From Protoeuglena noctilucae (taxonomy: Eukaryota): DNA of 64,000 nt. The notes under the pieces are model-generated. The model had not been told where the DNA came from, searched no databases, and saw only the letters and a program-made list of their open reading frames with translations. Below, one piece after another: positions 1,078-28,546 of this stretch; positions within the stretch are counted from its first letter, which is position 1, and every line of letters starts with the position of its first letter. The position numbers were made by a program, and so were the translations under genes. The stretch covers positions 496,001-560,000 of the forward strand of contig OY253685.1 of assembly GCA_958009085.1 (NCBI GenBank), in the 5' to 3' direction.

Positions 1078-4000
1078 ATGCCGCCTTCCAGGGCATCGCC
1101 GGCACCGGGGACGTCCGGCCGGCTCGTTCTCCTGCTGGCCCTCTGCCTGGGCCTCCTGTGCGCCCCCGCCCGGCCCGCCGTCGTGATCGCGAACAGCCAG
1201 CTGCAGACCTGCACGGCCGACGGCTCCGCGGGGGGCCAGGTCACGGGGTGCAAGGAGAAGCTGACGGCGACCGTGGCGGTGGAGAGCGGGGAGACGTTAG
1301 CCACCACGTCCCTGCAGGTGCAGGTGCAGTGCGTGAACCCCGACAAGGGGTCGTGTCCCTGCCAGTGCCAGTACGGCGTCAACGGATGCACATGCAGGTG
1401 AGCTTGACGCTTGTGCCGGGCATGCGTGCGTAGGAGCGGGGCCCACTTGCTTGCTCACCCTTGTAAGCTCAGCCGGCGGGGGCCACAATTGCGTGGGGTT
1501 GCCAGCAACTTGCCTTGACTGTTCCACAGGGACCTGAAGGACTGGCTCACGGTGGAGATATCCAAGGACCCCATAAAGGTTCAATACCCGCTGACGTACA
1601 ACAAGGTGTGTGAAGGGGTTCCCACATCAGGCTGCGTCTGTGCCACACGGGCAGTCAAAGAGAAACACAGCCGCGCCAAAGTGTGGCAGCGTGCCTAAGC
1701 GTCATGCTTAGCGGGCGTGACGTGGCATGTGGGAGAAAACGGCCTCCTTCATTTCATGCAGAGCTACCCCTCTCGCATGTTCGAGGTGTTCAAGCTGACG
1801 GGTACGGGGACGGGCGGCGGGCGCTTCTGCGACGACAGCCCCACCTCTAGTGAGTGCGCCATGACTCAGCCGTCGCCACACTGACAGTGATTCTGCCACT
1901 CTGCCATCAACAGCCCTCTCATGGTACACTAAACCACTTTTAGACGCCGTCAGGACATTTGAAACCCCCCTTGACACCCTCTCTTGTCCCTGCAGGCAGC
2001 CCCACGTGCGGTTGGGCCCACGACGCTCAGGGTCACAACATACCCGACAGTCAGGGATTCTGCTGCACGTGCTCTCTGTCCCAGGGCCTCTCCGAGAGCA
2101 TCGGCATCGGGCCTGGCACACAGAAGGCGAGCATATGTGGTGTGGGGAGTGCAGTCACAAGCAGGCAGCTGCAGGCGCGAAGAGCTGACCTTACGGTGAC
2201 TGTGCGCGCGTCATGGCGTGGCTTGTGCTAAGATACTAAAAGCTGGCACAAACAAAGGTGCATTATTGGCATAGAATGGTGTGTTCATTCGTACATTCGC
2301 TTGCCCTGCAAACGCACTGTGTACGAGTGACCACAACCGACCTGCGACCGTCGTGGTTGCAGAGGGGTGACGTGTCGTGTGGCCTTTTACAGAACGCCCT
2401 GTGGCTGGGGGGCGTGCCAGGCAGCGCCCACTGCCTCGTGTGGGATCAGAAGATGTACAACGGGTACTACATAGGCCAATCGACCCTGGACTTCACCGTT
2501 CATGTCAATGTCAAGACCGACGGCTCCGCACCCACACCAACACCCGGCCCCCAGGCATCGAGTTCGAGCTCGCCGGGACCGGCAGCCGGCAGCGCGACGC
2601 CGGCGTCGCCGAATGCGAGTCCCGGGGCCACTCTGCCGCCGCCGATGACCCCCGCATCGACGGCCGCAGTTAGACGCAGGATGCTCCTGGGCGGCACTAG
2701 TACTACCACTGCTAGCGCCACGCCTGCTGCGGGGTCCACGCCTGCGGCCGGCCCCTCCTCGACCCCCGGCAACCCCGCCAACGCCACCACGTTACTGTGG
2801 GACCTCAGGTGGGGATTGGGTGGAGGGTTGCGGAGTTTGGGGTTGTCAGCCCCAGCCCTTTCCACACCCCCCGCATCTTCCCTCTCTCACACAGCGTGAC
2901 CCCAGCCCTTTCAACACATCCCGCATCTCCCCTCCCTCCCCACGCAGCGTGAGCCCCAGTGCCTCCATCACACACACACACCCACACCCACACACACACT
3001 CCCCACACCTCCCCTGTCCCCACGCAGCGTGAGCCCCAGTGCCTCCATCACGGCCTCCCCCGACGGCACCTTCATCGTAAAGCTCCTGGGCGACCTGTCA
3101 GGCTACACGGACCTGCCCGTGCTGTCAGAGAAGCTGCTGTTGATACCCGCACCGCAGGCGGCGGGCAGCCAGGGCACGGGGGGCAACCCCGTGGTGCAGA
3201 TGATGACCACGGGGATGTGGGACTGGATTCTGGCGGACCAGAACATGGTGTCTGTCGAGTGAGTGAATAGGCGGAGGGGAGGTGGTTCTTGTTGCTTAGT
3301 AGTACTCACTAGTACTGTTTGGTATTCATCACGGTCGTTAAGCCAACTCAGTCGTGTCACGGTCACATCGTGCTGTGTGCTGTGCTGTGTTCTGAGTTGC
3401 GCGTCGAGCATGTCCTGTCAGTTTCAATTCGCTCTCGCACCCGCAGTGGCACCGAGTGCAACAAGATCGGCACCAGTTTCGCGGCATTCCGCGACCAGCC
3501 GGACAGATGCGGCGTTCCCCTGGGCACGTGCCTGTCCAACCAGGTCAGTGACGGTGGCAATCAGCACATGATAAGCCAACAAGGCAAAACGTGAGTGAGT
3601 ACTTAGGTGCAACACACACACACCCCACCACCCCCCACTCGCAGCCAGCCGACGTGTACCACGCCGACCAGGTCCGCCTGGCCAAGTCCCAAGTGCCCCT
3701 CTACCGCCTGCACAAGTACTAGGGATCCTATCCGCAAGACCAGTGGTTCGGCAACACGTGGAACGCCACCAGCCAGGGGTGGTCAATCGTGCTGCCCGTG
3801 CTGGGGAGCCACACCAGCATGGTCTACTTCGAGATGAATGCCGATAACTTGAGGTGAGTGGGATGGGGCATGTGGTGACATTGACTGGATTATCAACAGA
3901 TGAGCGCCGAAAGCTAGAGATGAGTGCGAGTGTATGCAATAAGTGGTGGCGAATGGAGGCCATGCCGTGGGTGGGTCTTTCTCATGCAGTAGCACGATGT

Positions 4001-6515
4001 CAGCGTGGCTCGCATTCACTGTCGTAGCGGAGTTTTTGAGTTGGTTCGTCACCACCTCTACTCCACAACTCAGCATCTCTCTCCCACATTCAACCCCCAC
4101 CCAGATTCGTGACCAACAAGTCCCCCGGCAAGATTGAGTCCGTCTCGGTGTGCCAGTACGGTGGTGTCACCTGCGGGGGATTCGAAGCCATGACGCAGCA
4201 GGGGTACCTGAAGGCCAAAGTGCAGAACACGGGGTCACTGGCGGCGCTCTATCACGTGTCAGTGGTGGACTGCACCCCGGGGATCATGGCCATGCCCGAC
4301 CAGGCGAGTGTGTGAGATGATAGGAAGTGTGGATGGCATGAGCATGATATGTGCAGGGTTTATCGACATGGCCATGCCCGACCAGGCGAGCGACATGGCA
4401 TACAACGATAACAGTGTCGATAGTCCGTAATATAGTACATAATTTACTGTCAACGATCCCAACCTGGTTGCACCCTTACCCCCCCCAGACGCATGCGATT
4501 GATGCCGGTGCTACGTTCGAGTTCTCCTTTGTGATTTACATGACCACGGATGTGGCCAACGCGGGCAACGCCTGCGATGTCATACTCAAGGACGACTTCG
4601 GGAACACCCTCGACATGAAGACGGTGAGATGGTATTGACAAGGGTGGATAATTAGATAGATGTTATGGGTTGGTGTGGATTGAGATGAATGGACAACACC
4701 CTCGACATGAAGACGGTGAGATGGTATTGATAAGGGTGGATAATTAGATAGATGTTATGGGTTGGTGTGGATTGAGATGAATGGACAACACCCTCGACAT
4801 GAAGACGGTGAGATGGTATTAATGGGTGTTGATGTGGGTTGATATGAATGGGCAACACCCTCGACATGAAGACGGCGAGATGAGATTAATAAGGGTGGAT
4901 GTGGAGTGGTAACAATAGTGGGGGCATGGTTGGTGGGCAGTATTGGTGGATATGGGCACTGCCGCCCATGCATCTATGAGTGAACTGTGAGTTCACTTGT
5001 ATGAGAGATGCTTAGCAGTCTCTGCCCCTTTCGTGCTCTGCAGACCAGCTTCTACACCACTGCCACCCAGTACACCAACAGCACCGATTTCAGCGCCAGG
5101 CCGGGCCAGTCGGTGCAGGTGGTGGGGGGGGGAGGCAAGACGTGCAAACAGAAGGCGAGTTTGTTGGGGAGGGGTGGGGGGGGCGAGAGGTGCGATAGAG
5201 AGCTGGGCTTTCTATGTTGCTACAAGATGACTTGCACACCCACGTTACATGCACCAACCCCACACGCTCACGCACCACACACGCACCCGCACCCACACCC
5301 ACACCCATACCCACCCCCACACACCACACACCCACACCCACACACCACCCAACACCCACCCCCACCCTCCCCCACCCGCAGTGCCCTGGCCTGTTCGACA
5401 TCTTCTGCGTCCTGCGCACCGGGTGCTGGCGCAACCTCTTCACCACGCTCATCACGATCGCATTCGTGGTGCTGTTCCTGGTCGCTGTGGTGTTTATGGT
5501 CAGAAAGGGGTGGTGCATCATGCTCATGCCGGTCAAGGGGCGCAAGGGGAAGGGGAAGAAGGTGAGAGGGGGACAGGGTTACTGTTAGCTCTTCCGTGTT
5601 CTCTTTTCGGAGTGACTGACAGCTTCATCTCAGCCGTTTCTGTTATTGCATGCCGCCGCTGCATGTCTCTCCCCTTGTCAGCTCCCACCAACTCCACCAC
5701 TAGTAAACATGGTTCATCTCATTAGTAACAACAACCACCATTGCCCACCCCCCTCCCCCCCGCAGTCCAAAGCAAGGGACCCCAGCCCCACCCCCACCCC
5801 CGACCCGCACCCCACCGCCCCGCCTGCGCCCGCCAAACCCGACCGAGACCAAAACTGGAATCTGACATCCACTCTGGCATGGATGATGGGCAGGAACGCA
5901 CCCGCGAGCAGTGGCCAGCCCAAGCCACACCTGCCGCCCCACCCACCCCATCACGCTCGCCCCACCAGCGCACCCCGCTCTCACGCCGCCAGCCACCGGG
6001 CCCGGCCGGGTGGCGGAAAAGGGCATGGCGCGGGCGGGAATCGACCCCGCGACCGCCGGGCGTCGAGGTATGACCAGGAGGACCCCTGGGGCAGCGACGG
6101 GGGTGGTTACGATAATAACGATGATAACTTTCGCGATAACTATGGTGACTGTGAGGGGGTGGATGAGGTGACGGTGGATATGGGGGATGGATACGGGAGC
6201 GAGGGTGGGAGGAATGGGAGGGATCGGCGGGGTGGGGGGAGGCGGGGGGAGGGCACTGGCACTGGCACCAACACTGGTGTTGCTCTGACACGGACCGCGT
6301 TTCTGGCACTGATGCGGTCGGTAGGGCAAAGCGGTGGTGGGGATGCGGGTAATACTCGGGGTGATAGGGCAGACAGGAGTGGTGGGGGTAGGCATGGGCC
6401 GGGTGGTGGACGTGCTGTGACGAGGGGCCGGCGTGGGGGCACAGCACGAACGGCATACCTGACGGGTCGGGAGGAGCTGCCGCACTCGCGGTGGTCTGCG
6501 GGGGACAGCGTGTGA
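1078..6515 (+). CDS. HAP2: HAP2/GCS1 gamete fusogen (class II fusion protein), about 14 exons
   Basis: Signal peptide (RLVLLLALCLGLLC), VIANSQLQTC...CKEKL, CPCQC...CTCRDL, FCDD...PTCGW...IPDSQGFCCTC, GSAHCL, ECNKIGTSFAAFRDQPDRCGVPLGTCLSNQ, domain III (SPGKIESV...FEAMTQQG), stem CPGLFDIFCVLRTGCW, one TM helix at ~5445-5510, then a basic/Gly-Arg-rich tail ending at 6515. Confidence 0.93.
4603..4885 (+). repeat. Tandem repeat (92, 92, 67 bp spacing) whose unit contains the HAP2 exon end and splice donor
   Basis: aacaccctcgacatgaagacgg(t/c)gagatg occurs at 4603, 4695, 4787 and 4854. Confidence 0.95.
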
Positions 6516-7028
6516 TGGGAAATACTGTGGTAGTTGAAAAGTATTTGGTATCATGAGGCCTGATGATGCGACAAGACCGGGTCTTCTGTTTATCTGTTTA
6601 CATATCTGCGATACCAGCGGTAGCCGTGGGCCAGCTTGCGCCTAAGTCCCGTTTAGCGTTCTGCCACAGTTGCTGGCTGATGCCGCGTTTCTTTTGTTCC
6701 GTTCCACCAGCCTCTTGTGGCCTTATGTGTAGCGTCACCTTTTACACCTTTTCGCTGGGGATAAGGTCCTTTGAAGTAATACGACTTGCATGTTTCAATA
6801 GCAACTGACACGCGCTCCGTGCTGCCGCCACAATATGCGCCAAACCATGACAACCATGCTAGCTCCCTCTTCTGTGCCAAGCAAACCACAGCATCTTACA
6901 GTGGCAATGACACCAGCCACTCTCTCTCTCTCTCACACACACACATAGACAGTCACACGCATCCACCCACACCCTTCCACCACCACCGCCCCACCCCACC
7001 CCACCCCACCACTCCCCCCAAACCCCCC

Positions 7029-10000
7029 TCAGTCATCCTCATCCCCCCCCACATCCATATCCACATCCTCGCTCTCCCCACCCCCCTCCTCCGACCCACT
7101 CCCACTCGAGTCCAACACCACATCCACCTCATCCTCCGTTTCCTCCCCCTCACCGTCCGACACCACATAGCTCTCCATGTACCGACGCGGGCGCTTCGCA
7201 GCACGTTTGCCGCGACCCTTCGCACCCGCACCACCGCCCGCACCCGCACTGCCACCCCCACCCTTGCGCCCCGCCCCACCCCCCGCCTTGCGTGCTCGCG
7301 TGCCCACCCCACCCCCCGCCCTCCTCTTGGTGTCGAACTCCCCATCGCTGTCATCGTCAAAGTCCGCGTCTGGATCGTCTTTATCGACATCGTTATCCGC
7401 CCCCCCCACGTCCACCTCGTCGTCCCACTCCCCCGCCACCACCAACTCTGACGGGTTCGTCTGAAACACCTTGTCGTCGTCCTCCTCCTTGCAAGAACTG
7501 CGAAGATGGGGGGGGGGGGGGGGAGAGGGATAAGGGGATCAATTTAATATTTCGAATTCAATAATATAGCCACGAAAATCATCAGTAAAAAATATGGTTA
7601 AGGACAGTGAATAACAAATTCATCGACAGTATATCCACAATCAATCTCCCCCCCCCCACATCTCGTCTCACCGGTAAATGTCGTCACACACGAACCCCTC
7701 CCTCTCACACCATACACATCAACACACTCTATATCAATTAACAATCACACTATCCAATCACCCCCACATCTCCTCACCGGTAGATATTGTCGCACACGAA
7801 CCTCTCCCTCTCCGCCCTCTCCGCGATCTCCTGCGACACCACGCGCCACTTGCGGCATCGGGTGCACTCGGCCCAGTGATGCCGCACCTCCGCGGCCTCC
7901 CTGCGACGCACGGCCGCCTGCGCGCGGGCCTGGCGCCTGGGGGGGGATGGGGGGGGGATACAGGGGGGTTGGTAAAGGGATTAAGTCAATTGATGGGTCT
8001 GGCGCTTGGGGGGGAGGGGTTGGGGTTAAGGGATCGAATCGGTGCTGTGCTGGGTAAGGGATTAAGTCAAACAGTGGGCCTGGTGCCTTGGGGGGGGGTG
8101 GGGAGGGTGGGGGTGCATGGAAAGGGATTGAGTCGGTGCGAGGTGAGGGATGGAGTAAAAATCCATCCATCCACCCATTGTATCTATGGGAGTAAAACAC
8201 GCTCAGTTGCGCTTCCCACAACCCCACCCACTCTGCTACCCCCACACCCACACCCACACTGCTACCCAAACCCACACCCCCACCCCCACCCCTCACTTGA
8301 GTTCCCCCAGCTGTTCGTCCGTCATCCCCGCGACCCTCTGCTCCTCCTCCTCGGCCTCCCTCCCCAATCGAACAATCTCATCATCTGCGTCAATCATCTC
8401 CCCCACACGAGCACGCACGCGCTCGGCCGCTCGGATGTAGAAGGGGTCACGCAGGGCGCCCCCGCGCTCGGGGTCGTGGTACTGGGAGAAGAGAGGGGGG
8501 CGAGATTGGATTTATTTTAGTTATTATCGTGTATCTATATTAATTGTAACATTCAACTGCAATATTTATATAAAATAAAATAGAATAGTAAGTATGATAT
8601 TTCCATCATTCTCACCTTCTTGGTGTTGCACACCATCTTGTCCCAGTCCTGCAGGAACGCGGCTATGCTGGTGTAGCTGTCGGCCTTCCTGACGCACCTC
8701 CGCCTCATGCTGTCGATCAGCACCCAGTCCTGCTTAGGGACCTTGGACTGCGGGAGCGGGTGAATATGATCATCAGTCGTCATTAGTATATATTATATAC
8801 TATCATATATAATATAATATAATATATTGCAAATTACAAGTACAACGATAGTACCAGTGGTTGGCAGTAACAGTCATATAACAGCCGTACTAATACCAGC
8901 ATCGCAGCGTTCCCAACCACCCTTACAATAACAAACAAGCAATTACAACCACCACCACCACCACCACCACCACCACCATTAACCATTAACCACAATCACA
9001 GTTACTAACCTGGTAATCCTCGATGCTCTTCAGCAGCCCTTCGGACAGGAACCCGGCCACCAGGCTCTCGTGGTACTCGGGAACGGGCGTGCTCAGTTCC
9101 GGATCCGACACCACCCTTTGCAGCAGCGACAGCAGAGCACGATTGAAGGCGTCCCTGGCCGGTCTTGGTACCCCCGCGTCCCTCGCTTTGCGTATTGGGG
9201 CCTGCCTGGCTGGTCGTGACTGGGCTTCCTGCCGCTCCTCGAACTTGCGCTTCCGGACGTCGTGAAATTGACCCTCGGCGTCGGCGTTTTCGTCCTCGGG
9301 GTCCGACTCGCCGGAGGGGGCGGAGGAGGGGGCGGACGAGTCGGAGAGGGAGCGGGCGGCGTCCTGTGTAGGGAGGAGGGGGAAAAGGGTGTGAATTGGA
9401 GTTTGAATGGGGTGGTGGTGGGGGTAGTAGTGGTGGTGCGGGTGGCAGTGGGGGCGGGGGAGTCGGAGAGGGAGCAGGCGGCGTCCTGAATGGTGAAGGG
9501 AGAGGGGTGTCAGTGAATGGGTGTGGGGGTGAGAGTTGTGACGTGAAGGGGGTGGCAGTGAGGGTGACAGTGGGAGTGGGGATGGTGGTGGGGGTGGCAG
9601 TGGGGGTGAGGCCGAGCGCACAGCAACGTTAGCACCAAACAGCCCCTCAACTCCCACCTCTCCGCCTCTACCAACCATCCAAACACACCACAACCACAAA
9701 CCATAGTCACTACCCACCACCACCACACCCCTCACCTCCTCATCGCTCCCCTGCGCCTTGGCCGCCCTCCTCCCCCCCTTCGCCGCCCTCGCCCCCCTCG
9801 CCCCACCCCCACCCTTCGCCGCCGCAGCAGCAGCTTTGACCTCCTTCATCCCCCTTCTCTGCCACTCCATTTCCATGGGATTCAATGGCCTGACGCCCGG
9901 CCTGTCTGGGCCCCACGGCAAAATGCGGATGGCCCCGGTGCGGGGGTCGGGCTTGCGGTTGTCGGGCCAGAAGGCCTGGGGGTGGGGTGGGAATTTGAAA

Positions 10001-13000
10001 TGTAAGTGTCAGGGACTTGAAATGTTAGGGTGAGGGTGTGGGTGTTGTTTAAGTGGGGGCGGGTGTGGCTTCGATCTCGATGGGGTTGGTGATCATTACC
10101 AATGCATACATCAACAATAGTCATTGATAATAACAGTAATAGTAATCACTCCTTCACCTTGATGGCTTCGATCTCGATGGGGTTGGTAATGATGATTACC
10201 AGTGCACATGTCAGTAACAGTAACAATAACAACGATTGCAATAACTACATCTTCACCTTGATGGCTTCGATCTCGATGGGGTTGGTAATGATGATTACCA
10301 GTGCACATGTCAGTAACAGTAACAATAACAACGATTGCAATAACTACATCTTCACCTTGATGGCTTCGATCTCGATGGGGTTGGTGATGATAATCTCCTC
10401 CTCCCTCACCCTCGACTGCCCATCCACCGTCTCACGAATACGCATCAGGCGACGCAGGCGATGGGTGACCTGGGGATGATTAGAGATGGTTGATTATAGT
10501 GTAACAGTTTTATAATAATTACATATGGCAGCATATGTAATTATAATAAAACCATATGCTGCCACATGTAATTACGAGTGATGTTGTGAGTGCGCATGAT
10601 GATAACGCGGCGGAGGCACTGCCTCCACCATCCAAGTCATATCCATGCCACCAATAACGATACTATTAGTAGTAATAATAATTCCTATATCACCACCCAC
10701 CACCCCTCACCTTGGCAGCCGACGCCTCTCCCCTCTTCACCTCCGCCTCCACCATCGCCACATTAATACACTCACCAATTATAGTATTTTTAACACTAAA
10801 CGTAACAAAACTAGTATTATCACTTTCAACTCTCACCTTGGCAGCGGATGCTTCTCTCCTCTTCACCTCCGCCTCCACCATCGCCACCCCCGTGTCTTTC
10901 AGCAGACCCTCCTTTCGCATCGATTCCAGCGCAGCCAATTCCGCCTCCTCCTCTCTCCGCAAACGATCCCCCGCACTCTCACCACCCGCACCCGCACCCG
11001 CACCGCCACCCTTGCCACCCTTGCCATCCCCCGCACTCTTATCGCCCGCACCCGCACCCTTGCCACCCCCGCCCCCACTCCCGCCCGTCTTGCCACCCTC
11101 CTGTCCCTTCCCAGCCCCACTCTCTGCCCCACCCTTGCTCTTCCCACCACCCTGCTTCGCACGCCCACCCCCATCCCCCGCCTTGCCACTCCTTTGATCC
11201 TTCCCACCCCCACTGCCACCTCCCTTACCACCCTTATCTTTGCCCCCTTTCGCAGCCCCCTTTGCTGCCTTATCCACTCCTCCCTTGGCTGTGCTGGTGG
11301 ATGGGGTGGCGCCGCTGGGGGCGGGCTGTGGGGGTGGGGAGGGTGGTGATATGAGATGGCGTGAGAGGTGGAGGGTGATGAGGTGTAATGCAAATGGGAT
11401 GTTGCAATTGTTGGGAACAGCGCACCTGCCCCACCCGCCCCATCACCCATCTCACCATCTTCCCGATCTTCCCCCCACCCACACCAACACCACACCCCCC
11501 ACCTCCCTCTTCCCGCTTATCCCCTCATCAGCACCCACACCCCACCCCATCACCCCCACTCATCCACTCACCCTCTTCCCGCTCACCCCCGATTTCCTCC
11601 CCGTCCGCACCGACGTCCCCCCACTCTGCCCCGCCTCCCCCTCCCCCTCTCCCCCCCCCCTCCTCCCCACCTCCACCTGCCGGCGCCACCCTCAGCGCCG
11701 CCCTCTGCTTTTCAAACACCGCCCGCGCCGCCACCGCGTTGCCCTCCACCCGCTGCCGCGCCGATTTCAAATTCAAACGGAAGTGGGCGGCCTTGGAGGT
11801 GTCCCCCTCCTCGAACCGCAGGTTGTTGATCTCCTTGAGAAAGGCGACCATCTGCCACCGACCGTACTGCAGCACGATGTCCAATGGGACATCGCGGGTG
11901 AAGAGCGACGCTTCCTTGCGCAACAGCTCCCGCAGCTGAGCCATGGATTTGCTGCGGTAGTCGGCCTCAGTACCAGCCACTGCGATATGGGTGAAGTGAG
12001 GAGAGGGGGGGTGAGTGAGTGAGTGACGAGTGAGTGGGTGACCAAACGAGTGTGTGAGAGTGAGTGGGTGGGTGAGTGATGAGTGCGAGTGAGTGAGTGA
12101 GTGAGTGAGAGTGTGACTCAGACCCATCACTCCCACACCCCCACCTCCTCGCCCGACCATCTATCGATCGCACATCATAGACAATCACACCGCACCCCAC
12201 TTCCACACCCCAGCCCACCCCCTCACCCGGCCCCGCCTTGAACCGGGCCGCCGCCCCCCTCAGCGCCTGCTCGTGCGGCACGAACGCGTACCCCAGTCCT
12301 TTTCCGGTGGGGTCGCCGGCGGGATTCGATAGGTCGACCGTGCCCGCGCCCATCCGGGCGTTGACGAAGGCCGAGGTGGTGGACCAGGGCGTCAGCCAGC
12401 AGTAGAGTTTCAAGGCGTCGAGTGCACGCATGGCGCGGTCGTCCTGTGAGGGGGGTGAGGGAGAGAGAGGTGAGAGGTGAGATAGATGGGATGTGAGATG
12501 AGAGGGGTGTGATGTGAGCCAGCAGTAGAGTTTCAAAGCGTCCAACGCACGCATGGCACGATCGTCCTGGGTGTGTGAGAGGGAGGGGTGGTGAGGGTGG
12601 ATGATGTGAGATGGATGGGAGGTGAGGGAGGTGAGAGGTGAGGGAGGGTGATGTGCAGCATTACGACGTGAGAGGGGTTGTTTAGGATGAGGGCCTACCA
12701 GCACCGCTGAAGTACCAAATTATAACATTATCATTATAACATCACACCTATCACCCCCTCACCCCCGGGTACAGCACCGCGATGGTAGTACTACCTATCG
12801 CATGGCATCGTACTACTCGCAACACCACGCCATTGTCATCCACCCCTCACCCCGGGATAGAGCACCGCGATGGTGACAATCACAAGCAATTGGTATTACC
12901 AATCACCTCAATAACCCCACCAATCACTCCTCACCCCGGGATAGAGCACCGCGATGGTCCTCCTCATGGCCTCCAGGTAGCTGGGCTGGTAGTGCTGCAG

Positions 13001-16000
13001 GTGGGTGTCGCCATGCACGCCCAGGCTGCGCAGCCACATATCACCCGCACGGGCGGATTTGAACAGGGAGAAGAGCTCGGGGGGGAATTGCCTGCGTGGG
13101 GGGAGAGCGATTGGAGATGAGAGGTGAGAGAGTGAGGATAGCAGTGAGGGTGGGAGTGAGTGTGTGTGATGGGAACAGCGAAAAAAGCTCGGGGGGGAAT
13201 TGCCTGCGTGGGTGGGGAATGAGGGTGGGGGTGGTAGTGGGGGTGGCAATGAGTATGGGAGTGAGGGTAAGGCATTTCCTGCAAAGGTCAGCGTGCCTCG
13301 CTACTCTCTCCCATCCCCCCCTTAACCCCTCGCCTGTTCAGCTCCGCTTCCTCCGGCACTCGCTTCCTCAACACCAACACACAATGCTATGTACCATTAC
13401 TATTCATAACATCCACACCCCGCTTGCCTGTTCAGCTCCGCCTCCTCCGGCACCCTCTTCTCTTTACTCAACACCAGCACGTCCCGTTGCACCCCCAGCC
13501 CCGACGCCGCCGCCGCCCTTTCCACGATCTTTTTCGGCGGGTCCCGCGCCGCCGCCAGGATTCGATCCCCCAACCCCGCGAGCACCTGGGATACGGGCAG
13601 CTCGACCGGGGGTATCTCTCCCGATGACCGCAGCCGCCTCTCCTCGTCTGGCCCTTTCAGCTCCGCCCATATGTGGCGCCGCACCAGTCGCACCAACAGC
13701 TCGTCGAAGTCGGGGGAGCTGGGTGGGGTGGGAGTGATGTGAGGCAATGATAGTGCTAATTGGGAAGTCGATTAATACTCTGACGACAGCCCACCGCTCC
13801 CCACCCACAATCATCACCCATCCTCACCCCGACACTCCCACTCATCAACCCCATCCCTCATCACCCATCATCAAACCCAACACTCGCACTCATTACTAGT
13901 CACCCCTCTCCACTCACCCCGGCGCCGGCACCGCCTCCCTCGGGTGCTCCTGCCCCACAAACACCGTCCCCGTCAGCTCCCTCAGCAGCAGCTGCCCCTC
14001 CGCCTGCCTTACGAGCAGAAAGTCTCTATCAGCCTCATGTGCACAAGCGGGGCATTCAAACAGATTCGTCTCAAACGCCAGAAGGGAATCTCCCGGGTCC
14101 AGTCTGGCGCCCTGAAAGGGGACGTCGCTGTCCTGTTTGTCTTTGGGGGGATCGACGGGCACCACCTCGCCGACCCTCCAGCGCGGGTGGGGCGGCGGCT
14201 TGCCGGTGCGGGGGTCGCCCTGGGTCAGGAACTTGTGAGACGTGTCCTGTGGTTAGGGGAGAGGGAATTTGAAATTTTGAATGTTACTGGAAGGTGGGAT
14301 GAGTCAGGGACTTGTGGGACGTGTCCTGGGGGATGAGGGGGGATGGGGAATTCGGATGTTGGGTTTTGAATGGAGAGAGAGGGTGGGGTGAGAGTTGGGG
14401 AGTTGTGGGGGGTGTCCTGGGGGGGTGGGGAAGAGGGGTGGAAGTGGAGAGGTGTGGCAGGGTGGAGGGTTGCGTGTGATTGCAGCCAAGAGGAGCTTTG
14501 CATATCGAGCACAACACCACCCCAGCCACCCCAGCCTCATCACATCACCCCTTACCCCACTCCTACCAACACCCCACCCCCACCCCAACGAGGTCCCCCC
14601 ATTGATCCCCACCTGCGCATCCCTTTTCTGGTAGAACGTCACCAGCCTGGCCCCCATGCCGTCGTCCTGCAGCAGTGGCGGCCTCTCCTCTAGATACTCG
14701 ACCGCTATGAAGTGACCCGGCTTGCGCGCAAGCAAGTCCCTTCGCCTCTTAAACGCCCCCGGTGGCTTGACCGGCTCATTGCTGGTAGCGTCAGGCAGCT
14801 TCGCCAGTTCGTGGGAATTGAGGGGGAGCACGAGCGTGTTGACGATGAACAGCACGCGGGAAGGACAGTGGGAGAGGAGCGTGGTGGGCTGGAGCGTGAG
14901 CAGGCGAGAGGGGGTGGCGCGGGTGGTGGTAGCAGTGGCGTTGGTGGTGGTGGTGGTGGTGCGGGTAGCAGTGGTGGTGGTAACAGTGGGCTTGCTGCCG
15001 GCTTTGGGCTGCGTTGCGCTGGGTTTGGAGGAGGGAGCGGGAGGTGGGGCGAGGGCGGAGCGGTCCCGGGGGTCCCAGACCTGGGGGAAAGGTGGGGTTT
15101 GGGGTGGGGTGGCGAGGGGTGGTGACGTAAGGTGGGGTGTGAGATGGGTAGGGTTATGGTGGTAAGGGACTTGCCAGCATCCAACCTCTTCACCCATCCC
15201 TTCCCATTCAGAACCCACTCATCCACCCATCTCTCCCCCTCATCTCCTCTCATCTCACCTAACACAGGTCACACAGCATACAGCATATCACCATATCTCA
15301 TCTGATTCTATCCTATAGCATATCATCTGAAACAGCGTCTTGGGCCCCGCCTCAAAGAACGGCGGCACCCCCCATCACCTTATCTTATCTCATCTCATCC
15401 TTATCTTCTATTCCCCTATCCTATCCAATCACCTGGAACAGCGTCTTGGGCCCCGCCTCGAAGAACGGCGGCACCCCCGGGATCGCCCTCCCCTGCACGA
15501 ACCTCTGCCTCCCGTGCTGCACCTTTCGCTTGAACAGATAGTCGAGAGATGCGGTGACATCGATGTCGTCCAGTCGGAGGGCCGTGGAGGGGCCGTAGGG
15601 GGACAGGACGATGAGGGAGGAGGTGACTGGGGGGGATGGGGGGGGTGGGGGTGGGTGAGTGAGAGAGGTGGGTTGGGGTGAGATGGGGTGAATGAGTGAG
15701 TGAATGACGGTGATGGTAAGGGAGGAGGTAAGTTCGGGTGGTGAGTGCAGCACCCTCCTTCACCCTTTCACCACCCAACCCTCACCCCCGCACACGCCAC
15801 CCTCCCCACAACAACGCACCCTCACCCTTAGACAACCCCCACACTTACATATGATACGCAGTAACTATACTAACATAGTACTACTCCACATAATACTACC
15901 AGCACCGACCCCTATCCCTCTCACCCTTCCCTGGCTTGTCACCCTTGCCCGCCTTCCCCGCCCGGGGCTCCGGCTCCCTCAGCCCCGCGTACGCACACAG

Positions 16001-19000
16001 GTGCCGCGTGGGGTGGTGGAACCTCCCGGGCTGGTACTCTGCGTCGGGCACCGTCGCAAGCGCAGCCACGGTAGTCGCGAATGCCACGGCCGAGTGCGCG
16101 GGGCGCGGGCGGCCCAGCACGGGCGCCAGGTCCGCGTATGCGTCGTTGGAAAGTGCCAGAAACGGTGCCAGATCCCTTTCGATCGGGTCATCCGGGACCG
16201 GCCGGTGCGCGAACGCGGTGTAGGGTACCGGTTTCGGCTGCTCCACCACCGCTGCGGGTGCCATTCCCAGTGCCTCGCGCCAAGCGGCGTCTGTCAGCAG
16301 CGCAGACGGCGCTGTGGCGGGTGCAGTGGCGGTGGCTGGGGGTGGGGCGTCGAGCGGTGAGAGCCAGGCGGTGGATGGGTCTGAGAGGGCGGCGGCTATC
16401 GAGGTGTCCAGGGTGTGAAGTGCGGTGGGGGAGAGGGGGGCGTGGCGCTCCCATGGGTCCGGGGAGGGGGGGCGGAAGGGCGGGGCGGGGGCGGTGAGGG
16501 GGAGGTCGGTTGGGAGCGCGAAGGGGCGCGTGGTAGCGAGGGGCTGCGGGGGCGGGGGAGGGGTGGTGAGTTGCGTTAGGGTAGAGCGCGTCGGGTAGTT
16601 GAGGGGTAGATGACGGGAATGGTGAGGATGCATGCTAAATAATTTCTGGTGTCGAACAACCAACCTAGCGCACGCTATGGCAGTCACTGCCACTCGCCTG
16701 TAAGGGTTCGACTCTGAGCATGACAACTTACAACCAGCACACACACTTACCACATATATGTCGCATGTCACCTGTAAGGGTTCGAGCCTGAGCATGGCAG
16801 GCACCGTCGCCGCCCGCTCCGCCGCTGCCTTGGCCATTGCCTCTGCCGCTCCCTCATCCGCATCCCCAAGCGTCCCAGGCACGACAGGCACGCTCAGCCA
16901 TCGCTTAGCAACAGCCCCATTCTCCACAACACCAACCCCATTCTCCTCTCCCGCACCCACTGTGCCCACCGCACCCATCCCAGCCCCATTCGCATCCCCG
17001 CCCACACTCCCAGTCGCCCCGCCCATCGCTGGCGCCCCGCCCACTGTCAAAGCTCCATCCGAAAACGTGACGTGGGGCTTCGCTTGCGACAAAGCACGAT
17101 CGCTGAGTTTGAGTGCCCCCGCCTCGGCCTTCGACACGGCCCCCACTGGCGCCCTGACTCCGCCAGCCACCTCCGTGTCAGAATCGTCCCTATCCTCCTC
17201 CTCGGCGATCCGCGTGGTTGCGTGTACCCCGTTCAACACCTGCAGCTCACCGACAGCAGGTGGCATGTCATGTGTGTCGCAACACTTTACGACTTGCGCT
17301 GGCGAAACGGCCCATGCAACGCCAGCTACCCGACAGTGACATGGTAATACTGCTCGACAGCATGGGCATGCAAACACCACGAAACGTCAAAGCACGTTTC
17401 GCGAATCACGTCAAGCACCCTCACAGCCACTCTCGTGCCCCGCATGACCTTCCCTCACCTCCCTCCTCGCCCCCCTCTCCAGCTGCACGACCCCCTCCCA
17501 CGCCTCCATCGCCACAGGCGCAAACGCCTCGCGCCCCCACTCCTCATCTCCCAACCCCGCACCCGCACCCTGTTCGCCCCCCACCCCGCCCTCGGCCCCC
17601 AGCCGCCCGCTCTCCACCGCCTCCCGCCACCGCGCCTCTTCCGCCCTCTTCCTCCTCTGCACAAACCACGCGTCCCCGCGCAGCTCCGCCCCCAGCCGCT
17701 CCACCCCCCGCCCAATCTCCCGCACATCCGCCTCATCCAGCCCCTGCCCCGATAACAGAAAGGCACTCTCGTCATCCCCATCCATGTCCTCCGCACCCCC
17801 GCGCCGCGCCTCCCGCTCCGCAAGCGCCTCCCGCGCCGCCCGCGACGCCGCTGCCGTCTTCGCGACCGCCTGCCTCGTCCGTTCTTCCCAGTCCAGCGAC
17901 GCCTGGACTGGCACCGGCGCGCCAGAATCGGGGCGGGGGCCCTTGGCGGTAAAAGTGAAATCGACGTAGAATTCGGACTGGCCAAAGTCGGGGTATTTGA
18001 TGGCGTCGAACTCCACGAAAGAGATCAGGGCGCGGGGGCCCGGGGTGAGCACGCTGCGGGAGTGGGGTGATGGGTGGGGGTTGGGGTGAGGGGTGGTGGG
18101 AGAGGGGGAGGTGTGAGGGGTGAGTGAGTGGAAAGGATGGTGTGGGTGGTGGCGAGGGGGTAGCTGAGGGGGTGTGGTGGTGAGGGTGGGCTGCCAACTT
18201 GGGTGGTGTGGCGTGACGTGCAGTTGCGTGCTATGGGGTGTGATGCTATGCCATGGCTTTCACATCCCCACCACTGCGATTTCACGCACCGGATGGGCCT
18301 GGCGGGGACCCGGGTCTCCGGCTTCGGTTTGGGCCTTGGCGCCAGCGATGGCGTGGGCTGCCCCTCCAACTCCGCTGCCAGCTCCCGGTCCAGGTCGATG
18401 TCCCCTGAGTCAGGTTCCGCGCGGCTCGGCTCCGTCTGCACGCGCGGGCGAGGCGCCGGGCGCGCGCCGGGCGCGGGGTTGGCCTGCGGCGGGATGCCAG
18501 GGTAGGCGGGCACAGAGGGGCCTTGGGGAGGGATGCCGCCCGACGGTCGGTCCACCGCGGCCGGAGCGGGCGCCGATGGTCCCGCATCATCTCCGTCGCT
18601 TTCGTCGTAGTCGTCGGCCTCCACTTTGCGCCCGTGATCTCGTGCGACGGCGGGGATCGCAGCGGGCGCGGAAAACGGGTCGGCCGGTGCCTGGGTCGAC
18701 GGCGCAGCGGGGGGCGCGCGAGGCCTTTTCATGACGTTGTCAAGCAGCTCCTCGTCCGAGCTACTGAAATCCTGCGGGACGTGGGGGTCGTGAAAGCGGT
18801 AAAGGCACAGCAAGGGAAGCTGCAGCGTCCCCGCACGTCACGCGCAGCCCCGTCACGGCGATTGCTGCCACATGCTCCATGATGTACGATTGTCTCGCAA
18901 TCACGGTCCCCAGTTGGCGTTCTCCACGGCGCGGCGCGGCTCCAGCCGGGCAGTCCCAGCAAAAGGGTCAGCGTGCGCGCAGGCCGCGGGTTCCACGGAT

Positions 19001-19421
19001 CCTCCGTAGAACCCTACACCTCGTTTGGACTATGAAGCAGCGTTGCGCAACGTGCAGGCCCTCTCACCTGCTCCTTCGGCGGCAGTTTCCGCATCGCCTC
19101 CCTGATGGCCTCGGCCAAGTCTTGCCGCAGCGCCTCCGGGAGCTCGTCCTTCTCAAGCGGCACATCGCCTTTGTCCTCTTCGTTTTCATCGTCGCTCGCG
19201 GTACGCTTTGGCGGCTCAAAAATGACGTTGTGGACGTCATCTTGGACGTCATCGTCGTCCTGCGCGGGGGCGGACGACGGGGGCCGTCGCGCGGGGGCGA
19301 TGGCGCGCCTTCACGCGAGGTGGTGCAATGACCAGTTTCCTCTCGCATTCAGCAAGGGTCATGTGGGCTCCCGCGTCCAAGATAGCTCGCGCACCTTGGA
19401 CGGCACCATGGACGGCACCAT
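7029..19421 (-). CDS. TAF1: TFIID subunit 1 (TAF1/HAF) with DUF3591 core, one divergent bromodomain and a C-terminal CW-type zinc finger
   Basis: DUF3591 motifs: VEYLEERPPLLQDDGMGARLVTFYQKR (~14620-14710), AFETNLFECP...DFLLVR...LRELTGTVFVGQEHP (~13920-14090), LTPWSTTSAFV...GDPTGKGLGYAFV (~12280-12400), AGTEADYRSKSMAQLRELL...GRWQMV (~11840-11980). Bromodomain exons at ~9010-9160, 8616-8748 and 8300-8482. Acidic tail ends at 7029. Start at 19421 inferred from splice logic. Confidence 0.88.
10068..10395 (-). repeat. 99-bp tandem repeat containing a TAF1 exon end and donor site
   Basis: cttcaccttgatggcttcgatctcgatggggttggt occurs at 10152, 10251 and 10350, with a partial copy at ~10068. Confidence 0.95.
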
Positions 19422-19877
19422 GGATGCTCCCAGCGTCGCGACAGCCGGCCGGGCCCCGCTCGAGACGACCGCCTCAGATCATCTGCTTTGTCATGCACAA
19501 GATGCGCGATCCACACCCCGCCCCTGCGTCGCGAGGGCCACCGGGGCACGCCGGGTGGACGGAACCGTCAAGAACGGCGCCTCTGGGGTCGCGATGCGCG
19601 GCGTGGACCGGGCACCCTTGTCTTCAGCGCCACGCAATGGAACAGCAGCGCTCAGCGGGAAGCGAGAAGGCCCAGAGGGTCGAGTCAGCTGGCTGGCAAG
19701 GTCTGGCACGTGGGAATTCACCCAGATCGGCGTCGCATGGCAGGCCATTGCTATATCTCTGCCTCTCACTGGGCATAAGGACTCCCGCGCGTGGGTCGCG
19801 CACCTCCCCTCGTCGCCCAGGGGCTTCTTGATTCCAGACAGGAGGCAGGGACAGAGCCGTGCGAGCTCGAGGTGGAG
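19422..19877. promoter_or_regulatory. Putative bidirectional promoter between TAF1 and SEC12
   Basis: The two inferred start codons are head-to-head and about 456 bp apart. No specific motif identified. Confidence 0.4.
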
Positions 19878-22807
19878 ATGCCGGCTATCCGCGAGGGTCC
19901 TCGGTAAGTACCGCATGCTCTCCTGCCAGCGCTGTCCTTCTGCGCCCTTGCCTGGCGCTCTTTCTCCTCGCATCAGATGCACGCCTGGCTTGGTGCCGCT
20001 GGTGATCGTCCCCTAGGCTTTTCGCGAATGGCAACCTTGACATGGTCATCGCAACAAGCTGTACGACATGCTTTCGCGTTGCTTCGTGGACTGCATCGCT
20101 GCGGCTCGCGACCGCAGGACCAAACGCGTGGCGTGCCCGATTCTCGCGGCGGGATGGGTCTCCGACTCCCTCATCGCTGTGGGTGGTGGCGGTGGTAAGG
20201 CGAAATCCGGCATCCCCAACCGCGTGATGCTCTGCGGGTTCTCGAGGTGACGGCAGGGCCGACAGCGTGCGCGTCGCTCGCTTTTGCCCTCGCCCGCCCC
20301 GGCTGGCCGTCCACGCCCGCGATGCTCCTTCCCGCAGAGACCAACTCTCCGCTCCGGTGGCCCACGCCGACCTGGATGACGCCGCCGTGGCCCTGTGCGC
20401 GCTGCGGGACGGCCCTTTGCCCCACCTGCTGGTCGCCCTGGAGGGCGGTGGTATCGTCAAGCTGGAAATCAAACATGACATGAGCGGACCTCCTGCAGTG
20501 AGGGTGGTACCCGGGTGAGCCCGCGGTGCTGGGGCTGTGGCTCTCAGCGCCCTGACAGGCCCTCGCTCGATTACCGCTGCCGCGTGCATTGCACCCAGGC
20601 CAGCCTGTGCCATATATACAACCGTCTCGTTTCTGACAATGAACGATAATGACTTAGATCCCCATCGCAGAGTGGGCGAGGCGTCGAGTGACTCCACGGC
20701 CCCCCTGCACTCAGCGCAACTGGGCCGCGCCAACGTGCTTCGTGCTTCGGACTCGGGGGACCACGTGGCCGTCGGGCACCTGAACCCGGAGCTGGACGAG
20801 GAGAAGAGCTACCTCACAGGTGGGCTGTATATGCACTGTGCTTGAGGTGTGCCACACAAGCTATGGTCGACCTCACAGGTGTGCTGTAGATGCATATGCA
20901 TGTGCTTGATGTGACTGGATGCTCCACGCTTTCTGGTCGACCTCACAGGTGCATGATACTACACACTCTCATGTTTGCCACACACCCTCTCGATCAGATC
21001 GACTGACCATACCCAAGCTATGCTGAACCTGTGTCCATTTCTCCCACCTCTCTTCCCCATCACCCGCAGTGTTGAACCGCAACCTGTCCCGCGTGGGCCG
21101 CATGAGTGGCCTGGTCGCCGGCGAGGTCAAAGACGTCGACTTCTGCCCCTGCCCCGCCTTGGGCCCCGATCACGAGTCGCTGATGGCAGTGGTGGATGAG
21201 GAGAACGCGTGTCATGTTGTCGACTGGCGCACGGGGGGGGACATCAGGGCACGCGTGTCGTTGCAAAACACACCGGTGAGGCCAGGGGGGTATGCAGGAG
21301 ATGCACTGCTAGTTCGGACACTCACACCTTCTCTTCTGAACCCCCAAGCTCCTCAACTTCACGTCTATGGGCAGCATCCACGTCTCTTCCTCTCTCACCC
21401 ATCTCCCCTCTCCTCATCTCCCCAGCTCTCATCGGGCAGCATCCGTCGCGTCAAATTCTCCCGCGCATCGCCATCCCCGCTCCTCTTGGCCCTGGTGGTG
21501 GCCCAGCGCCGCACTTACCTGGCCCGTTTCGCATTGGAGAGGTACCCGGGGTCCAAAGACGTCAAAGTGGCGTTCGTGGGGTCGAGTAGGGTGGTGGATG
21601 ATATCGCGACGTCGTTTGACGTCGGGAGGGGGGACGACAGCGCCGCGTTTGGGACGGCCGAGGGGGAGGTGTTCGTGTTCAGGTGCGTGGGTGTTCCTTG
21701 GTGCGATGTGTTGCAATGAGTCGTGCGTAAATGTGATGCCACGTGGCGGGTGGGACCCAGGTCACTTCAACCAACGCAGCACGTGGCACGCGCTGTTGGG
21801 GCGAGGGCACAGCACAGAAGTGCACAGCACGTTGGCAGCCTGCTACATGCTACCCACATCACAGGCTCTGCACCTCTAACACTCCCTCTTTTCACGACCC
21901 CCGCAGGCACGTTTCCGTCAATCGCATGAGTCAGGCGTACCGCCGGCGCCACCACATGGGCATCGTGACGTGCACGACCCTGTCCCCCGACAGCCGCACT
22001 GCCATGACGGCATCCGTCGACGCATTCCTCTCCTGCACACGCATGCCGGGGCACGCCACGGGGCTCGTCTCCAGGGCTACTCTGCTGGTGAGCAGCTTAA
22101 GCTGCCGCACACGTTCGTCAGTCCAAGGCAACGCTGTTAATCAGCAATTACAGCTGCCGTGCGCTCCTGTCAACTGTGCAAGACTTGTAGCAACATAGGT
22201 AGATAAAATGACCTCCCGTTCCTTCCCTCCTTTTTCTCAGATCACGCTCCTCGTCCTGCTTTCCACGGTCGCCCTCCTCGCCCACCTCGAGCACCGGAGC
22301 CTCATCACCCTGGGCCCCATCGCGGTCGCCAAGCTACTCCCCATCGCCGCCATCGCTCAGCACCTCCCGCCATCCCTCGCCGTCGCCATCCGCGACCTCT
22401 TCCCATCCCTGCTGCCACCCACCGCCTCACCGCCCGCACCCGCACCCGCACCCGTGCCCGCACCTGTGCCAGCCCCTGCTCCAGCCCCTGCTCCAGCCCC
22501 CGTGCCATCTCCCGCTCCCGCACCGGCCCCGATCCCCTCTCCCCCCCCGGCGCCCGCCCCACCCGTCGAATCTCCCTCACACATGCCCATGCCTGGTGTC
22601 CCTGCACCAGGGCCCGCCCCTCCCATGCCTCCCATGGACGCTACGCTCCAGCCGCAGGCGGCGTCAGTAGACCCGGCAGCGGCGCAAGGCTCGCCGGCAG
22701 CTGCTGGGGGGTCACCTGCACCGGCGGCGGCTGCGGGTGCTGCGGGGGGTGCGGGCGGAGGTGGGGACGCGGGGGTTGCTGGTGGCGTGGCGCGTGATGA
22801 GCTATGA
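19878..22807 (+). CDS. SEC12: SEC12/PREB-like Sar1 guanine-nucleotide exchange factor (WD40 propeller, TM helix, Pro/Ala-rich luminal tail)
   Basis: K-loop-type motif IAVGGGGGKAKSGIPN (~20173-20220), GEVKDVDF, HMGIVTCTTLSPDSRTAMTASVD, then TM ITLLVLLSTVALLA (~22241) and a PAPAP-rich tail. First exon MPAIREGPR at 19878 splices in frame. Confidence 0.85.
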
Positions 22808-23076: not shown

Positions 23077-24342
23077 TCATCCCGACGTGTATGACAAGGG
23101 TACTTGGACCAAAAGGAACACATTGAGGGCCAGGATGATGGCGATGACGACCCAAGAGATGATTGACAGCGTGCGACTGTTGCGGAACGCGCCCATGTGC
23201 TTTGCGCTCCCCGTGAAGTGGCATATGGGTATGACGACCACCGGGAGCGTCAGGGACAGGAAAACCTGGCTCAGCACTGCGGGGGCGGGCGTGTGGGTAG
23301 CTGACTGGCTGTCCCACTTAGTGACTCACCCAGTAGTGTGTTGCACCCAGTGTAATAGCGTATGGACCTCTGCAACTGATTCATAGCGCATTGCAACCCT
23401 TGCAACTAATGACTCACCCAGTAGCGTGTTGACGGCCTTGTCCCCCGCCAGCCCCGCCACGAGCGCGGCCGGCACGATCGACAGCAGGCGCGTGGCCAGC
23501 CGCCGCACCCAGGGCTTCAGCCGGAACTCCGTGAACCCCTCCATCACGATTTGACCCGCGAGGGGTGCCCGTGATGGTGCTGCTCTGGCCCGATGCCAGC
23601 AGCCCGATTGCGAAGACCGTCGACGCGGCGCGATCACCGATGGACGGGGAGAGAAGGTGGTAGGCGTCCGCAATCCCTGCAAAAGTGCAGATCAACACAG
23701 GGGTGCGATGGGGGGGGGTGGGTGGAATGAGATCAGGGCGTGTGGGGCAGTGTTGATGATGTGAGTGGGGCGAGCTCGAGGGCGCCAAGTCGACAGCATA
23801 CGTCAATGAGTCCTGTAGACGGTGCGAATCCAGGTAGTGCGTTAATGCTTTAAGTAGCTGCTTTACCACCACATCATGGCTGCCATGGTACCGTTTGGTT
23901 GCGGCAGCGTGTGCGCATCTCACCGGCCACGCTTGTGTTGTCGGTGCGATAGTGGAAGGCGGTGGCGGCGACGGCGAGGATCATCGAGTTGATGAAGAAC
24001 GCCAGTCCCAGGGACAGGTTCGAATCCCAGGTGCCGAAGCGAATGGCGTGACGCTTGCCCTCGGTGGTGCGGGGGTAGGCGTGTGACGTGGTATCGAAAC
24101 GTGCTGTGGTGTACCATCACTATATATACAATGAACGCGGTGCGCTCGGCACACGGGGCGCACCTTCCGTCCATAGCGATGGGCGCCTTCTCCACAGCCT
24201 GGTCCAGGGTGTTCCCGCCGGGAGTGTCCACATTGTGCCACGTGGACGGCAGCGACGACAGCCAGTCCTCTGGGTCGACCTCTGCCACGGTTGCATCCGA
24301 GCTCTCGTCCTCGGCTCGATGAGACTTCAACCAGCTCGCCAT
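23077..24342 (-). pseudogene. NRAMP: NRAMP/MntH-family metal transporter, truncated and frameshifted
   Basis: C-terminal half is clear ([64 protein letters not shown]). An extra C at ~23562 (GGCACCCCTCGCG) shifts the frame inside the transport motif. TM1-6, including DPGN and MPHN, were not found between the presumed first exon (24342-~24163) and ~24080. Confidence 0.8.
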
Positions 24343-28206: not shown

Positions 28207-28546
28207 TCAGTTGTAGTACATCTCAAGGCCCATGCCGTCGTGAATCTCGTAGTCCTGCGAGCGCGGGCCGGCGAAGACGTCTTTGAGCAGCAACCAAGTC
28301 AAACTATCGCCTTGAAGCCGCGACGCACGCCGCGGACCGCCCGGCGCGGGCGGCGCGGCCAGCGAAGCACACCTCGAGCGTAATGTGGTCCTTGTAGACC
28401 GTGTACCACTTCTGGATCCGAATCTTTTCCGGCCTCGTGCCCGTCTGAGCTGCCACGAGCTTCTTGAGGTCCCCAATCGTGTCGTCCTCGTTGCACTTGA
28501 CGCGAATCTTCTTTCCCAGACGGTCGTTCAGGACCACCTCAATCAT
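28207..28546 (-). CDS. UBL5: Ubiquitin-like protein 5 (Hub1), 2 coding exons
   Basis: [58 protein letters not shown] / [15 protein letters not shown], with the diagnostic C-terminal YY. Confidence 0.97.

Follow-up and report, generated by a model that had tools for sequence, protein, structure and literature searches.

The window examined here is a stretch of 64,000 nucleotides (nt) of Protoeuglena noctilucae contig OY253685.1, and the region of interest, lying on its minus strand, comprises the two final coding exons of the gene for TAF1, the largest TFIID subunit, in a marine, GC-rich green alga of chlorophyte type. Together these exons encode a CW-type zinc finger (zf-CW), the coding sequence of which is split by an intron. 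The first of them, called below the CW exon (7778-7936, minus strand; translation P0001, window:7777-7935:-), has GT..AG borders attested by RNA joints and codes for a linker followed by most of the finger. It is flanked on its 5' side by intron 7937-8296 (minus strand, GTGAGG..CCCCAG, RNA joint 7936/8297) and on its 3' side by intron 7498-7777 (minus strand, phase 2, GTGAGG..TCGCAG, RNA joint 7497/7778), which interrupts the finger between its third and fourth cysteines (Cys3 and Cys4). P0001 displays the W-x2-C-x2-C-x-K-W-R core and, later, F-x-C: the two tryptophans of the methyl-lysine pocket are specified by codons 7875-7873 and 7845-7843, the first three zinc-binding cysteines by codons 7866-7864, 7857-7855 and 7791-7789, and the third (core) tryptophan of CW fingers is conservatively replaced by a phenylalanine (codon 7797-7795, residue 47 of P0001). 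The last coding exon (7029-7497, minus strand, stop codon at 7029-7031) remains in an open frame across the RNA-supported splice. It supplies the fourth zinc-binding cysteine (codon 7493-7491), two codons past the splice and aligned with the fourth cysteine of the relatives described below, so that all four are present, separated at the end of the finger by a short Cys3-x6-Cys4 loop. Past Cys4 the chain is first acidic, then rich in Gly, Lys and Arg, and acidic again in its tail.

A preliminary description, made from the DNA letters, had placed a CW finger at the C-terminus of TAF1, hidden across an intron, with exons at 7937-~7777 and ~7497-7029; these borders proved right within one base, and the peptide that it had spliced together is the exact translation of the RNA-supported exon join, with the W-x2-C-x2-C-x-KWR...F-x-C...C pattern in the true frame across the splice. 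The Pfam comparison that it had called for was also positive. Taken alone, the CW exon scored 33.1 bits against zf-CW (PF07496; E 5.7e-8, gathering cut-off 27.5), a match beyond chance even with the few thousand open reading frames (ORFs) of a 64-kb six-frame translation; this score derives from profile positions 1-31 of 47, the remainder lying past the splice. A phmmer search of the PDB gave 17 matches, 15 of which were CW fingers (ASHH2, MORC3, ZCWPW2, KDM1B), all weak (E 0.28-1.4), and zf-CW was found in 17 of the 30 matches to the nearest ESM-Atlas clusters (best 0.93). When P0001 was aligned with ASHH2, its residues 21 and 31 fell on the two pocket tryptophans and its phenylalanine on the core one. 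A word-index search with P0001, a weak test restricted to proteins of <=2000 amino acids (aa), returned no match at E<=1 among 874 candidates.

The RNA evidence consists of assembled contigs, not reads, from four marine metatranscriptome runs (X1-X4) of one study, placed on positions 6500-20500. The contig pieces listed differ from the window by 0 letters. The joint that closes the finger, 7497/7778, was present in X1, X3 and X4, and the joint in front of the CW exon, 7936/8297, in X1 and X3. In one X1 contig (record 1, 1471 nt) the CW exons are joined to six exons lying upstream of them; its pieces are 7340-7497, 7778-7936, 8297-8481, 8616-8747, 9010-9363, 9736-9975 and 10356-10469, and it continues to ~10965, as calculated from the piece lengths. 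The seven joints in X1 (7497/7778, 7936/8297, 8481/8616, 8747/9010, 9363/9736, 9975/10356 and 10469/10837) are at an equal depth of 15.7 and are all of the GT..AG type on the minus strand; several of them were found again in X3 and X4. The reading frame is open from 11000 to the stop codon along this exon chain. Since the CW exons stand in one contig with the upstream exons, we concluded that both are parts of the same transcript.

The upstream exons, all on the minus strand, can be arranged in three blocks. Exons 8297-8481, 8616-8747 and 9010-9363, joined in the X1 contig, encode a bromodomain-like region and the helical linker that leads to the CW finger. Exons 9736-9975, 10356-10469 and 10837-~11288 (X1 joints; the 5' border of the last one is inferred) encode a middle segment that is conserved, and a low-complexity stretch rich in Gly and Lys. 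The central TAF1 exons, which contain DUF3591, lie at 11588-11979, 12227-12443, 12935-13091, 13428-13718, 13918-14246 and 14613-15080, borders 11588 and 14613 being inferred; the RNA joints found there are 11979/12227, 12443/12935, 13091/13428, 13718/13918 and 15080/15433. The 5' part of the gene spans 15433-19310: residues 252-684 of P0004, a related protein described below, were matched by tblastn to 17797-15409, and RNA cover extends to ~19575. The exon chain as delimited stops short of the N-terminal exons and of the start codon. Two oddities of the transcript may be mentioned. Intron 13092-13427 (minus strand) is of the GC-AG type (GCAAGC..ACGCAG), its joint being present in the RNA of both X1 and X3; GT-AG borders were found at all of the 11 further joints that were checked. 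In the Gly/Lys-rich exon (10837-11288, minus strand), RNA contigs from other organisms pile up (in X2 the depth rises as far as thousands) and the assemblies are interrupted.

The identity of the gene was established from its central part. DUF3591 (PF12157, the TAF7-interaction core) is matched by three minus-strand exons, which cover profile positions 76-125, 144-220 and 344-389 in that order. An exhaustive HMMER search with exon 13918-14243 retrieved 84 proteins at E<=1e-3, 36 of them of >=600 aa. DUF3591 was found in all 31 of the long matches that were scanned with Pfam; outside the scan were five matches of the multi-stretch or low-identity kind (P0005, P0026, P0040, P0045 and P0047). A word-index search with the same exon, again weak and limited to proteins of <=2000 aa, gave no match at E<=1e-3 among 355 candidates. 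By tblastn, residues 717-792, 794-890 and 1033-1098 of the TAF1 of [Myrmecia] bisecta (P0009) are colinear on window positions 14852-12264, and its zf-CW residues 1626-1662 fall on 7878-7771 (E 2.7e-4). A related contig of 6346 nt from a JGI metagenome (L001, one of five loci found from the single protein P0004) carries a DUF3591 ORF followed on the same strand by a second one, P0128, with a bromodomain-like region and a CW-like finger; P0128 is 36% identical to the spliced C-terminus of the window over 422 residues (E 7e-62), through both the bromodomain-like region and the finger. The DUF3591 exons, the colinear homology and this related contig identify the gene as TAF1. On L001, the P0004 ORF continues out of frame for ~250 codons (3088-3838) over P0128, the true ORF downstream; the C-terminus given for P0004 in the database is thus an artefact, due to a short intron or a frame change that was missed, and it hides the real bromodomain-like region and CW-like finger. 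Other TAF1 domains were also searched for: the TBP-binding TAND (PF09247) had no Pfam match in four 5' ORFs, the 5' end of the gene lying outside the delimited exons, and the zinc knuckle zf-CCHC_6 (PF15288) had none in the ORFs and exons scanned. The zinc knuckle is patchy in TAF1 across eukaryotes according to the sections consulted of a 2019 survey of TFIID evolution (PMC6672047).

The preliminary description had proposed that complementary DNA should tie the bromodomain and CW exons to the DUF3591 exons. The first half of this linkage is provided by the X1 contig; for the second, no contig listed crosses ~10965-11881, and the connection is made by a probable in-frame intron and by homology. 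In-frame GT-AG solutions exist across the gap: either of two strong donors, 11587 or 11572, can be paired with an acceptor that makes the next exon start at 11288. Segments 10837-10980 and 10356-10469 are homologous to a part of one uninterrupted ORF of P0004, the nearest full-length relative, in which DUF3591 also lies, and the X1 contig ties 10356-10469 and the 10837-~10965 segment to the CW exon.

The bromodomain-like region is divergent. The Pfam bromodomain profile (PF00439) had no match in the single exons of the window. When spliced, the region aligned with residues 1658-1728 of the TAF1 of Pedinophyceae sp. YPF-701 (P0017, CAG9467853.1), in its Pfam Bromodomain (1642-1711), with an E value of 3.8e-7 among the 84 proteins. 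In P0128 the Bromodomain score was 17.4 bits, under the 21.7 cut-off. On the basis of these three results we refer to it as a divergent bromodomain-like region. The phmmer alignments of the C-terminus were obtained with sub-regions run with --max; the whole spliced C-terminus of 700 residues gave no match to the 84 proteins under default filters. An ESM-Atlas search with the C-terminus of P0009 returned only weak bromodomain clusters (<=0.83) and was left unused. The CW finger begins ~60 residues after the bromodomain-like region and precedes the acidic and basic tail; as proposed here, the two would constitute a two-part chromatin reader on TAF1.

To determine how widespread this arrangement is, the other TAF1 proteins were surveyed. 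A bromodomain was found in 12 of the 31 scanned representatives, and three of these 12 showed a zf-CW match above cut-off, always after the bromodomain: the proteins of [Myrmecia] bisecta (Trebouxiophyceae; P0009, KAK9820491.1 / UniRef100_A0AAW1QGU6; zf-CW at 1627-1670, 33.3 bits), of Chlorella sp. A99 (Trebouxiophyceae; P0078, from EukProt; 2093-2142, 39.5 bits) and of an ENA record (P0083; 1454-1496, 40.0 bits). Both pocket tryptophans are kept in all three. A regular expression for the core motif, run over the 84 matches and then over 117 proteins, returned just these three and their cluster mates, and was also negative in the five proteins outside the Pfam scan. In the Pedinophyceae protein, the cysteines of the finger are kept, both pocket tryptophans are lost and Pfam zf-CW is negative. 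The L001 finger (P0128) has a methionine for the first tryptophan and scores 21.8 bits (E 2e-4), under the cut-off. No CW finger was found in the TAF1 of Prasinococcus capsulatus (Prasinodermophyta; two bromodomains), Chlorokybus, Spirodela and Cavostelium, in P0007, P0044 and P0046, or in the Ostreobium protein, the model of which stops 38 residues past the bromodomain. For Volvox, Haematococcus and Chlamydomonas the entries are incomplete models that lack the C-terminus, and as such uninformative.

A tree built by maximum likelihood from 21 rows of the DUF3591 region (a single gene, midpoint rooting for drawing only) grouped the window with P0004 (100/100), then both with the Pedinophyceae protein (100/100), and placed the Myrmecia, Chlorella sp. 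A99 and P0083 proteins in three other parts. The fingers of the first group (window, L001 and Pedinophyceae) share the Cys3-x6-Cys4 loop, four residues shorter than in the Pfam-positive fingers, and the phenylalanine that stands for the third tryptophan; among them, both pocket tryptophans are present only in the window. Since the bromodomain-then-CW order recurs in other green-algal TAF1 proteins, it is part of the inherited make-up of TAF1 and did not arise by a local accident. Its patchy distribution fits an old gain followed by losses and decay, or incomplete gene models, but not an invention of the window's lineage. The suggestion that the finger is specific to this lineage is thus unsupported: the three Pfam-positive TAF1 proteins have it, and decayed versions exist in two closer relatives. 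The preliminary description had also considered that the architecture might already be common in algal TAF1, and with three of the 12 bromodomain-bearing representatives this is partly the case.

A few side observations concern the finger and its relatives. The TAF1 P0044/P0094 is placed by the tree in a group with that of Chlorella sp. A99, yet it is without a CW finger; its last ~60 residues look Tudor/Agenet-like by eye, with no Pfam match there at E<=0.01. Decayed direct copies of the CW exon borders are present in the two introns that flank it. Intron 7498-7777 contains a copy (7642-7706; repeat D3, 75% over 65 nt) of the end of the exon and its donor (7748-7812), and intron 7937-8296 contains two copies (7995-8026 and 8076-8107; repeats D2 and D4, 75-81%, 81-nt spacing) of the acceptor and exon start (7926-7957). 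The L001 finger has no internal intron. The copies at both borders, together with the intronless L001 finger, hint at gain or growth of introns by local tandem duplication.

What the finger might do can be considered in the light of characterised CW domains. According to the parts consulted of PMC9043364, the four cysteines hold a zinc ion required for folding, residues W865 and W874 of ASHH2 form the cation-pi pocket for histone H3 methylated on lysine 4 (H3K4), the third tryptophan, W891, belongs to the core, and a variable C-terminal element sets the preference between the mono- and trimethylated forms (me1 and me3). Both pocket tryptophans being kept in the window, H3K4-methyl reading is a plausible prediction. 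The TAF1 CW finger would dock the N-terminal tail of histone H3 and sense the methylation of Lys4, the adjoining bromodomain-like module would sense acetyl-lysine, and one polypeptide could in this way anchor TFIID to marked promoter-proximal nucleosomes. The different parts of this proposal do not have the same strength. That a spliced CW finger follows a bromodomain-like region on TAF1 can be held with high confidence. That the finger reads H3K4 methylation is quite possible without being probable, this restraint being imposed by the decay of the pocket in the two nearest relatives. As an overall explanation, a TAF1 CW finger acting as a putative H3K4-methyl reader beside a bromodomain-like module is the one towards which we lean, by a slight degree.

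Several points weigh against this explanation. The zf-CW score covers only profile positions 1-31 of 47, that is to say the first of the two exons that make up the finger; the core tryptophan is a phenylalanine, and the Pfam-positive TAF1 fingers have four residues more in the last loop; the single exons gave no PF00439 match; the pocket is not conserved in the window's clade, with a methionine for the first tryptophan in L001 and both tryptophans lost in P0017; the RNA contigs all belong to one study; and no listed RNA contig bridges ~10965-11881, where the link to DUF3591 would be made by the proposed intron and by homology. It can be added that some CW fingers, those of KDM1B and MORC2, are not known to bind histone tails.

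Such fingers lead to the main rival to a reader function, according to which the CW finger is real and belongs to TAF1 but does not recognise methylated H3K4. Its role would then be that of a structural zinc module, or it would have a different ligand, for instance DNA, H3 without modification or a further factor of TFIID or RNA polymerase II (Pol II). We regard this as somewhat unlikely, though with an appreciable chance. It would account for relatives in which the pocket decays while the cysteines stay, for the short loop and the phenylalanine of the window finger, and for the lack of a conserved pocket-closing residue past Cys4 in TAF1 fingers; DNA binding is reported for the MORC4 CW domain in the part consulted of PMC7596504. 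It is less easily reconciled with the retention of both pocket tryptophans in the window and in each of the three Pfam-positive TAF1 fingers, or with the position beside a bromodomain, which fits a combined chromatin-reading module. A second rival, which we consider very improbable, is that the CW exons are transcribed separately, downstream of TAF1, or used only in a minor isoform, most TAF1 protein being without the finger. It draws on the lack of any listed RNA contig over the low-complexity stretch ~10965-11881 (in X1, RNA cover is absent at ~11170-11636), on an unspliced X2 piece (7515-7751) lying inside intron 7498-7777, the X2 contigs being mostly low-complexity matches from other organisms, and on the fact that isoform proportions are not obtainable from RNA contigs. 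Against it stand the X1 contig, which links the CW exons to six upstream exons and reaches a segment that belongs in P0004 to the same ORF as DUF3591, the frame that is open throughout, the orthologues in which DUF3591, bromodomain and zf-CW are found in single proteins, and the fact that no joint skipping the CW exon was found among those listed. A chance arrangement of cysteine and tryptophan codons in GC-rich DNA is refuted by the Pfam score, the spliced expression and the conservation in other algal TAF1 proteins.

To conclude on the reading that we retain, a TAF1 CW finger as a putative H3K4-methyl reader, its novelty and interest should be delimited. The TAF1 domains listed in the sections consulted of the 2019 survey are the TAND, the TAF7-interaction core, the zinc knuckle, one or more bromodomains and the streptophyte ubiquitin-like insert; CW is not among them (PMC6672047), and the string 'zf-CW' has 0 occurrences in six of its supplementary files (file 1 being outside the search). 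No published description of a CW finger on TAF1 was found in a literature search that included zf-CW and DUF3591 together. The TAF1 CW architecture is thus real, expressed, recurrent and undescribed in the papers found, and it is already present in public protein entries such as the TFIID subunit 1 of [Myrmecia] bisecta in UniRef; the window is a further, RNA-backed member, of the short-loop subtype. How chromatin marks guide TFIID to active promoters is known chiefly from animals, in which the TAF3 PHD finger is the reader of H3K4me3, and the TAF1 CW finger would be a concrete candidate for such a link in green algae. Beside bromodomains and PHD fingers, the known 'dynamic' readers of TFIID, it would also stand as a third type of module, and the pocket-intact and pocket-decayed variants (window, L001 and Pedinophyceae) are natural controls for binding tests. 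The value of the proposal is limited by its nature, a reading of domain architecture, and by the fact that the same architecture already stands, unremarked, in public entries.

Other genes were noted in the same part of the window. At 23080-23980 (minus strand), two ORFs match Pfam Nramp (38.0 and 28.2 bits, profile positions 237-274 and 322-357), so that a metal-transporter gene lies upstream of TAF1. A small ubiquitin-like ORF at 28307-28579 (minus strand; Pfam ubiquitin 22 bits, under cut-off) resembles UBL5/Hub1 by eye, and may be its counterpart. RNA joints at 19902/20117 and 20244/20336, with GT..AG borders on the plus strand (19902-20336), show that a divergently oriented spliced gene starts near 19900, just past the 5' end of TAF1.

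The TAF1 CW finger can finally be compared with what is known of CW fingers, of other TAF1 proteins and of animal TFIID. With the characterised fingers of ASHH2/SDG8 (specific for H3K4me1) and of ZCWPW1, ZCWPW2 and MORC3 (H3K4me3), it shares the Cys4 zinc site, the two pocket tryptophans and the W-x2-C-x2-C-x-K-W-R core. It differs from them by its host protein, by the phenylalanine in place of the core tryptophan and by its shorter last loop, and the element that closes the pocket and discriminates between me1 and me3 (Trp303, Phe78, Glu453 or the alpha1 helix, as given in the parts consulted of PMC9043364) has no recognisable counterpart in the window. The proteins most similar in architecture are P0009, P0078 and P0083, in which the order DUF3591, bromodomain, C-terminal zf-CW is the same and both pocket tryptophans are present; however, their fingers have the canonical third tryptophan and a Cys3-Cys4 loop longer by four residues, and they are not the window's nearest relatives in the tree. 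P0017 and the L001/P0004-type TAF1 resemble the window in the bromodomain-like region and in the middle segment, and have a Cys4 finger with a short loop in the same position, but their methyl-lysine pocket is decayed and, in L001, the finger has no intron. TAF1 of land plants and other streptophytes (Spirodela P0052, Chlorokybus P0064; in Arabidopsis, TAF1 is HAF1/HAF2) resembles the window in having a DUF3591 core and a C-terminal bromodomain. It differs in having a ubiquitin-like insert and no CW finger in the Pfam scan, the insert being also described in the sections consulted of PMC6672047.

As to animal TFIID, the same sections of PMC6672047 (citing Vermeulen 2007 and Jacobson 2000) state that the TAF3 PHD finger recognises H3K4me3, whereas acetyl-lysine is bound by the bromodomains of TAF1, and that TAF3 is an opisthokont invention, absent from Archaeplastida; this upholds what the preliminary description had stated of TAF3. 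The job proposed for the window protein, anchoring TFIID to H3K4-methylated and acetylated nucleosomes, would be the one performed in animals by the TAF3 PHD finger and the TAF1 double bromodomain. The means would differ: a CW and not a PHD fold, carried by TAF1 and not TAF3, a single divergent bromodomain, and both modules on one chain, with a function predicted from sequence. A TAF3-type reader would be a PHD fold on a histone-fold TAF, whereas the window module is a CW finger on TAF1, so that the likeness lies only in the proposed function. In its most general form, which we advance tentatively, the proposal is that chlorophyte TFIID may read H3K4 methylation alone, via a CW finger beside the TAF1 bromodomain, as a convergent single-chain counterpart of the animal pair. 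The device would be old, common to Trebouxiophyceae, pedinophyte-like marine algae and at least one unplaced lineage, its pocket would be decaying in some lines, and the window would represent its pocket-intact, short-loop form.

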